In this document: in pieces, positions 372 through 407 of the stretch
Numbering within the stretch: the stretch's first letter is position 1
How the letters are laid out: every line of letters begins with the position of its first letter
Assembly (NCBI RefSeq): GCF_003334335.1
Contig: NZ_QOWQ01000129.1
DNA: 1,031 nt
Direction: 5' to 3' (one strand)
Origin: Escherichia coli
GTDB lineage: Bacteria; Pseudomonadota; Gammaproteobacteria; Enterobacterales; Enterobacteriaceae
Notes under the pieces: generated by a model
Database searches by the model: none
Seen by the model: only the letters and a program-made list of their open reading frames with translations
Told to the model about the DNA's origin: nothing
Position numbers and translations under genes: made by a program

Positions 372-407
372 GGATATATTAAATATTCAGCCGCTGTCCC
401 TGGCCCA
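372..407. other. 36-nt intergenic spacer between the unknown ORF and the endolysin, containing the AT-rich element ATATATTAAATATT
   Basis: Seen directly: positions 374..387 read atatattaaatatt, i.e. atatt (376..380) and atatt (383..387) as a direct repeat separated by aa, including the self-complementary hexamer aatatt (382..387). No AGGAGG-like Shine-Dalgarno lies 5-10 nt upstream of the endolysin ATG on the minus strand (upstream sequence ...ctgaatatttaatatatcc-ATG). No function is asserted. Confidence 0.3.

Follow-up and report, generated by a model that had tools for sequence, protein, structure and literature searches.

The endolysin gene R of an Escherichia coli lambdoid prophage lacks a Shine-Dalgarno sequence and probably starts on an unstructured A/U-rich site

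How is a phage endolysin gene translated when no Shine-Dalgarno (SD) sequence stands at a normal distance from its start codon? The question is raised by a 1,031-nt stretch of E. coli DNA, here called the window, in which the lysozyme gene R follows a gene of the DUF1327/YdfR family across a short spacer (Table 1). The initial annotation gave coordinates and sequence correctly (spacer 372..407, A/T run 374..387), although the genes are on the minus strand, and proposed that the endolysin is coupled to or dependent on the upstream gene, that the AT-rich element is a protein or RNA binding site, or that it is a −10-like promoter element. Initiation independent of an SD, which we find to be the best-supported mechanism, was not among these options.

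Table 1. Features of the window. Signed positions are counted from the ATG of R.
Feature	Position	Strand	Remarks
Lysozyme gene R, predicted R21-like SAR endolysin, 5′ part	1..371	−	123 codons, gene cut by the window edge; ATG at 371..369
DUF1327/YdfR-family fusion gene, 3′ part	408..1031	−	208 codons, gene cut by the window edge; TAG at 410..408; lies between holin S and R
Intergenic spacer, stop of upstream ORF to ATG of R	372..407	−	36 nt; sense strand TGGGCCAGGGACAGCGGCTGAATATTTAATATATCC, then ATG
Variable 5′ module of R (nt 1–27, codons 1–9, MNTKIKYGL)	345..371	−	codons 2–7 A-rich and G-free
Core translation initiation region (−21..+20)	352..392	−	A/U-rich, SD-less, unstructured
A/T-only run, 14 nt	374..387		sense strand AATATTTAATATAT; + strand ATATATTAAATATT; specific to the leader class of the window
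In-frame TGA at −18	387..389	−	read directly; excludes an upstream start
Distal SD-like AGGGA (−30..−26)	397..401	−	−4.8 kcal/mol; too distant for a normal SD

Coordinates and translations place both genes of the window on the minus strand. Prophages in many E. coli genomes match the DNA at 99% identity, about 600 genomes containing the full window, and the Stx2a phage Stx2_95 matches it at 95%; its context is a lambdoid/Stx late operon with the order stx, nanS-p, DUF1378, DUF826, class II holin S, [insert], R, Rz. The R product matches Pfam PF00959 (Phage_lysozyme/GH24) at 2.9e-24 and PHROG 7 (endolysin), and its sequence relatives in the PDB are the phage 21 lysozyme, a SAR endolysin (3HDE/3HDF), and RrrD (4ZPU). 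Its translation reads through an Ala/Gly-rich N-terminal segment, MNTKIKYGLSAAVLALIAAGAPAP, and a catalytic triad, E35-x8-D44-x5-T50. With a GH24 domain and triad, a Gly/Ala-rich N-terminal segment and a class II holin upstream in the cassette, R is classed from its sequence as an R21-like GH24 lysozyme of the SAR endolysin type, for which release from the membrane is predicted. Pinholin/SAR-endolysin lysis systems are known from Stx phages (PMC8136144). A 125-aa ORF on the plus strand (34..411), antisense to R and crossing the spacer, can most likely be dismissed as a spurious shadow of the lysozyme frame.

The absence of an SD is genuine and is not produced by a misplaced start codon. An in-frame TGA stands at −18 (389..387), and there is no NTG codon between it and the ATG of R; GenBank and RefSeq use the same ATG, which is given by three independent annotations; and the N-terminus MN(T/A/E)KI(K/R)YGL is kept across about 100 sampled loci. 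Because of these observations we regard the annotated ATG as the true and correct start. All 8-mers across −20..−1 gave positive duplex energies against the 3′ tail of 16S rRNA (+0.4 to +2.7 kcal/mol), which upheld the earlier statement that the endolysin start has no SD at normal spacing; the R leader offers no productive 16S pairing at spacings of 5–13 nt. The sole anti-SD-complementary stretch of the spacer is the AGGGA at 401..397, far beyond normal spacing. Among the 54 annotated genes of Stx2_95, R has the fifth weakest pairing (best value −1.7 within −22..−3), which puts it in the weakest 10% or so, and it is one of five that are essentially SD-less (ΔG > −2). The SD-less R start is thus real and somewhat unusual, and it is not singular. 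The other four SD-less genes of Stx2_95 have their starts at 5739 (minus strand), 36516, 7830 and 44330 and include the T3SS effector gene nleC and a tail assembly gene; some of them may have mis-annotated starts and not be genuinely SD-less.

Comparison with relatives points to the origin of this state. In 933W-type phages (PA18, Stx2a_154) R begins 4 nt after holin S, with the junction CGGGGAGAGTAAGCTG-ATG-AGC-AGG, and uses a strong SD, GGGGAGAG, which lies inside the 3′ end of S and pairs at −8.1 kcal/mol. At the insert-type junction the end of S, GGGGAGAGTAAAGCG, is followed by ATG-AAG-AAA, the start of the YdfR-family gene. S and R are also adjacent in Pectobacterium phage ZF40, with GGGGTGAG, and since its R is only 70% identical, adjacency of S and R is probably the older state. 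In the type of the window the inserted YdfR/DUF1327-family gene has taken over the position of R behind S together with its SD, and R is joined to the insert by a different, SD-less 5′ module consisting of the leader and the first nine codons. The R alleles of the window and of 933W-type PA18 are 59% identical over nt 1–27 and 97% identical over nt 28–60, and the leader and first nine codons travel together as a module. The mosaic junction accordingly lies inside the R coding sequence, at about nt 27/codon 9 (near 345 in the window), and not at the gene boundary; the segments compared were L001 4660..4720 and the 933W-type L084 1501..1560. R lacks an SD, in this reconstruction, because the inserted gene occupies its original SD-equipped place behind the holin: the cause is a mosaic insertion between holin and endolysin with its right-hand junction at codon 9 of R. 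The initial annotation had suggested a link between expression of the upstream gene and lysis, and in evolutionary terms there is one, in that the insert holds the former SD of R; as a regulatory link it found no support, either in the geometry expected of coupling or in a control site.

We also considered whether the spacer is a relic of the 3′ coding end of ydfR. K-12 ydfR uses a frame ending in ..CCA-TGA, and the corresponding frame is open for 17–30 codons in all leader classes. An open frame of this kind is expected by chance in about 40% of cases, and at the DNA level the K-12 3′ end is matched only in patches; descent of the spacer from ydfR coding sequence was kept as a possibility only.

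The inserted gene itself is of variable extent. Its full-length homologue in Stx2_95 encodes 329 aa, of which only aa 1–112 match Pfam DUF1327/YdfR, and the gene is a fusion of this DUF1327 part with a C-terminal part of about 215 aa (full gene, L002 3635..4624). The C-terminal part had no match in Pfam, NCBIfam, PADLOC or PDB, the protein falls into PHROG 1085, a family of unknown function, and our search for functional literature on ydfR and DUF1327 returned none. Between prophages the length of the inserted gene ranges from 103 to 329 aa; it is truncated or deleted in many of them, and frameshifted in AR_0017. A strong terminator-like hairpin lies within the upstream ORF on the plus strand (957..984), antisense to the lysis genes, with a 10-bp stem AAGCACC...GGTGCTT followed by TTTTTCAATT and a T-run to about 994. 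As judged from the sequence, it may keep antisense transcripts from reaching the lysis genes, or its presence may be due to chance in a Lys-rich coding region.

Relatives of R were sampled in two ways, first as 83 loci from 80 viral contigs that encode R relatives of at least 95% identity, and second, without bias, as 119 loci retrieved through a 25-nt SAR-domain sequence common to both alleles. In the unbiased sample about 108 of the 119 loci (~90%) carry the SD-less allele and 11 the SD allele. The most frequent R allele of E. coli lambdoid/Stx prophages is thus one that normally has no SD. Over the 119 loci the SD-less allele is preceded by at least five different leaders: a majority class ending ...CGATAAA(T/C)CCTGATAAATATCC, the class of the window (...GGCTGAATATTTAATATATCC, 16 of the 119 loci), two further classes (...CGATAAATCCCC and ...GGTTACGATAAATATCC) and the K-12 Qin type (...CATCATAAATATCT). 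Where the window has its A/T run, other classes have GATAAATCCTGATAAATATCC, CGATAAATCCCC or CATCATAAATATCT, and ungapped similarity between the window and the majority leader stops at about −6. Comparison of the spacer across homologous prophages, which had been proposed as a check, therefore went against the element, since its conservation in other leader classes reaches no further than about −6. The spacer of the window is identical in 21 of the 83 loci and in 16 of the 119 unbiased loci. In the 21 loci, however, nothing between −63 and at least +28 varies, spacer included, so that the invariance carries no information on purifying selection specific to the spacer, and that line of evidence was discarded; it reflects a recently shared mosaic block and not a constraint on the spacer. 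The AT element of the window is therefore class-specific, and A/T-richness is general to SD-less leaders; with at least five AT-rich leader variants that can stand in for one another, the 14-nt run represents one of them and not a specific site.

The majority-type leaders have features of their own. They contain a tandem direct repeat, GATAAAT(C)C...GATAAATATCC (L003 2975..3009, L060 2456..2500 and relatives), and just upstream of it a possible small hairpin, CCAGGGAUU...AAUCCUG. In class L101 there is a single repeat copy, which places the 3′ arm of the hairpin directly against the ATG. These leaders also contain CGATAAAT, which resembles the H-NS nucleation motif TCGATAAATT.

The segment of R from −20 to +20 has 25% GC; positions −15..−1 comprise 6 A, 7 T, 2 C and no G, and codons 2–7 contain 11 A and no G, versus 6 A and 4 G in the 933W type. 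For the 41-nt core the minimum free energy (MFE) is 0 kcal/mol; none of 200 dinucleotide shuffles was less stable. The probability of being unpaired is 0.68–0.76 at the start region of R (0.76 for −12..+3), and the start region is mostly unpaired in 7/7 insert-type leader classes tested. The SD-equipped 933W-type allele has 57% GC and an unpaired probability of 0.36. Core MFE values from 110 loci average −1.1 kcal/mol in the 100 SD-less loci and −9.8 in the SD-equipped allele. The wider 106-nt region is not structured above shuffles (z = −0.81). One MFE fold contained a long-range helix between the GC-rich half of the spacer and the SAR-coding region; it was lost when the window of folding was slightly shifted, other leader classes do not form it, and, with the z-score just given for the 106-nt fold, we rejected it.

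Features described for SD-independent initiation regions are found at R, namely A/U-rich upstream sequence, A-rich and G-poor early codons and a single-stranded start codon. Start selection in E. coli does not need SD pairing, as ribosomes with an altered anti-SD choose correctly, and true starts are marked by A-rich upstream sequence and low structure; ribosomal protein S1 may bind A/U-rich sequence 10–20 nt upstream (PMC7043885). Assembly of the 70S initiation complex is promoted when the first six codons are rich in A and poor in G (PMC12661326). We conclude that R is probably started by SD-independent initiation on an unstructured A/U-rich site. R would be translated from an internal initiation region on the late polycistronic lysis transcript, with the 30S subunit loading on a structure-free A/U-rich stretch of about 40 nt, probably through S1 and simple accessibility. 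The loading stretch would consist of the last ~20 nt of the spacer and the A-rich, G-free codons 2–7, and the AUG inside it would be selected without mRNA–rRNA pairing. We infer that the R leader recruits ribosomes by itself and that S1 takes part; the resulting output of R is perhaps adequate, or perhaps deliberately modest, as might suit a SAR endolysin. The SD-less start of R is kept behind upstream stops at −4 to more than 500 nt, among others in the propagated phages BP-4795 and PhiR5_1, the latter grown on E. coli C.

Several observations weigh against SD-independent initiation. The leader is mixed A/U, U-rich rather than A-rich, with U and not A at −3, and A-to-U changes in reporters lowered expression (PMC7043885). 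In addition, the support from functional phages (BP-4795, PhiR5_1) concerns the majority-type leader and not the variant of the window, and many of the sampled prophages may be defective.

A role for the distal AGGGA was also weighed. It could act as a standby or remote SD that tethers the 30S subunit, which then slides along the AU-rich stretch to the AUG; the motif is the only anti-SD-complementary stretch of the spacer, it is followed by a structure-free track, and CCAGGGA is retained in several leader classes. SD function drops steeply beyond roughly 13–15 nt. The spacing here is about three times the functional optimum, the pairing is weak, and several classes with the same start lack the motif, which makes this route highly improbable.

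The A/T-only run at 374..387 is the longest of the window, and runs of at least 14 nt occur in 3.4% of mononucleotide shuffles of the window (P ~ 0.03). It had been described as an AT-rich repeat; the A/T-only character holds, and a repeat can be recognized only loosely, as two imperfect 7-mers (AATATTT/AATATAT). Alternatively the run is a 5+1+5 palindrome, ATATT-T-AATAT. Recurrence or conservation of the element above background was not found in the 46-kb Stx2_95 genome, among the leader classes or in relation to the invariant block. Both the 14-mer and its 11-nt palindromic core are present in a single copy in Stx2_95, where the only match with two mismatches is at position 3833.

Could the run be the −10 element of an internal promoter that yields a short-leader or leaderless R transcript independent of late pR′? 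TAATAT (4/6) on the sense strand ends 4 nt before the ATG, and TATATT (5/6) occurs on the antisense strand. A consensus scan of both strands of the window found 0 sigma-70 sites, where shuffles expect 1.1. A relaxed hexamer scan of both strands returned only −10-like matches of 4/6 or 5/6, with −35 partners of at most 3/6 at the non-optimal spacings of 15 or 19 nt and no extended −10 TG beside them; the window thus has neither a −35/−10 pair at 16–18 nt nor an extended −10. The hexamers are missing from other leader classes, and the lysis genes lie inside a Q-antiterminated late operon, downstream of stx and nanS-p. The logic of this operon is established lambdoid biology. Absent sigma-70 sites and poor, wrongly spaced −35 partners led us to reject the −10-like element of the initial annotation, and an internal promoter at this place is extremely unlikely.

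A specific protein or small-RNA site in the AT element or spacer, controlling translation of the endolysin or local transcription, is very unlikely as well. The run has several TpA steps in addition to its length and palindrome, and several leader classes have CCAGGGA at a distance of 26–40 nt before the ATG, a motif that resembles the GGA core of CsrA sites. Candidate binders may be the nucleoid proteins H-NS or IHF on DNA, or CsrA on the RNA at CAGGGA. The single copy of the AT element in a 46-kb phage genome argues against such a site, as does its replacement by unrelated AT-rich sequence before the same ATG in other classes; its invariance within the class is accounted for by the wider block (−63 to at least +28), which does not vary either. 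Sharing of CCAGGGA reflects common ancestry of homologous spacers and not independent conservation, and the motif is missing from the K-12, L008/L116 and L013/L090 leader classes. A search of Rfam up to E = 1 gave no match, and structure in the region is at chance level (z = −0.81). With one genomic copy, classes that do without the element and no Rfam family, the proposed binding site is left unsupported; nothing at the spacer speaks for a dedicated regulatory site.

Delivery of ribosomes from the upstream gene had been another option, and without an SD an alternative of this kind is attractive. Ribosomes ending at the upstream TAG would reinitiate 36 nt downstream at the AUG of R, so that synthesis of R would require the YdfR-family gene to be translated. 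The unstructured spacer would not block a sliding ribosome, and the leader variant of the window was seen only, and always in the sampled loci, 36 nt behind the same upstream ORF. In K-12 Qin-type relatives (8 of 100 loci) the TGA of ydfR overlaps the ATG of R (ATGA) with the same AT-rich leader. This 4-nt overlap between ydfR and rrrQ (L087 6055..6058, K-12 Qin, minus strand) is the only classic coupling geometry in the family, and there the leader lies inside the ydfR coding sequence.

Against this, an intergenic distance of about 20 nt almost abolished termination-reinitiation in reporters for three native E. coli gene pairs (PMC10666635), and 36 nt exceeds it. Nor is the distance conserved. 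For the 100 SD-less loci we measured how far from the ATG of R the closest preceding ORF of 80 aa or more ends; the distance was −4 nt in 8 loci, 36 nt in 16, 42 nt in 5, 50 nt in 25 (BP-4795 among them), 63 nt in 6 and 82–134 nt in 2; in the remaining 38 loci it was at least 311 nt, or there was no such ORF within 600 nt. In the propagated phage PhiR5_1 the annotated upstream gene ends 319 nt before R, and E. coli AR_0017 keeps the junction intact despite a frameshift in its upstream ORF. Coupling by melting of structure is unnecessary, as the initiation region has none. The window pair shows neither a stop/start overlap nor a distance within about 10–20 nt, and homologues share no conserved geometry. 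The long and variable distances disfavour coupling to, or dependence on, the upstream gene, and coupling across 36 nt is unlikely. In the K-12 Qin type coupling is plausible, and it may be part of the history of the SD-less start.

SD-independent initiation on the accessible A/U-rich stretch is therefore the reading we retain for R, and it has few consequences beyond the locus: SD-less, unstructured A/U-rich starts are already well documented in E. coli, and R is an ordinary new example. A more far-reaching proposal is that the SD-less start represents a functional rewiring of lysis and is no neutral side effect of the insertion: the insert, having moved R away from the strong SD in the holin gene, would make output of the SAR endolysin low or conditional, through its own translation or through a spacer-binding factor, for example at CCAGGGA. 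If true, this would adjust the endolysin:pinholin ratio in most E. coli lambdoid prophages, and with it the moment of lysis and the release of Stx. Output from the leader that was far below that of the 933W-type junction, or that depended on the insert, could affect when cells lyse and Shiga toxin is set free; we found nothing in favour of this, and consider the proposal quite improbable. The observations are of modest practical use in models of endolysin output and of the timing of lysis for Stx prophages.

The start of R can be set beside several known systems. It is like the E. coli non-SD starts of yhbY and gsk (PMC7043885) in having no rRNA pairing, an A/U-rich stretch within about 20 nt upstream, minimal structure and A-rich early codons. 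It differs from them in its leader, which is mixed A/U, slightly U-rich and not A-rich, with U at −3, and in its place inside a phage lysis operon, where the endolysin/holin ratio matters. The rpsA mRNA provides a further SD-independent internal start in E. coli. The 933W type (PA18, Stx2a_154) shares with the window a pinholin-type S, the operon position and R from nt 28 onwards (91–98% identity by segment). It is unlike the window in that R follows S by 4 nt with the SD GGGGAGAG in S, an N-terminus MSRKLRYGL and a structured initiation region of 57% GC, whereas in the window that slot is taken by the inserted gene and R is SD-less. Phage 21 S21/R21 is alike in combining a class II holin, of 71 aa, with an adjacent R21-like lysozyme that carries a SAR segment and E-x8-D-x5-T, although the R proteins are only distantly related (phmmer 1e-16). 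The arrangement essQ-ydfR-rrrQ of K-12 Qin has the same order of holin, DUF1327 gene and lysozyme, an SD-less AT-rich leader core, ATAAATATC(T/C)ATGAAC, and an N-terminus of the type MNTKIRYGL. The K-12 ydfR is a short gene of 103 aa that ends in a TGA overlapping the ATG of rrrQ; the DUF1327 gene of the window has an additional C-terminal part of about 215 aa fused to it and ends 36 nt before R begins.
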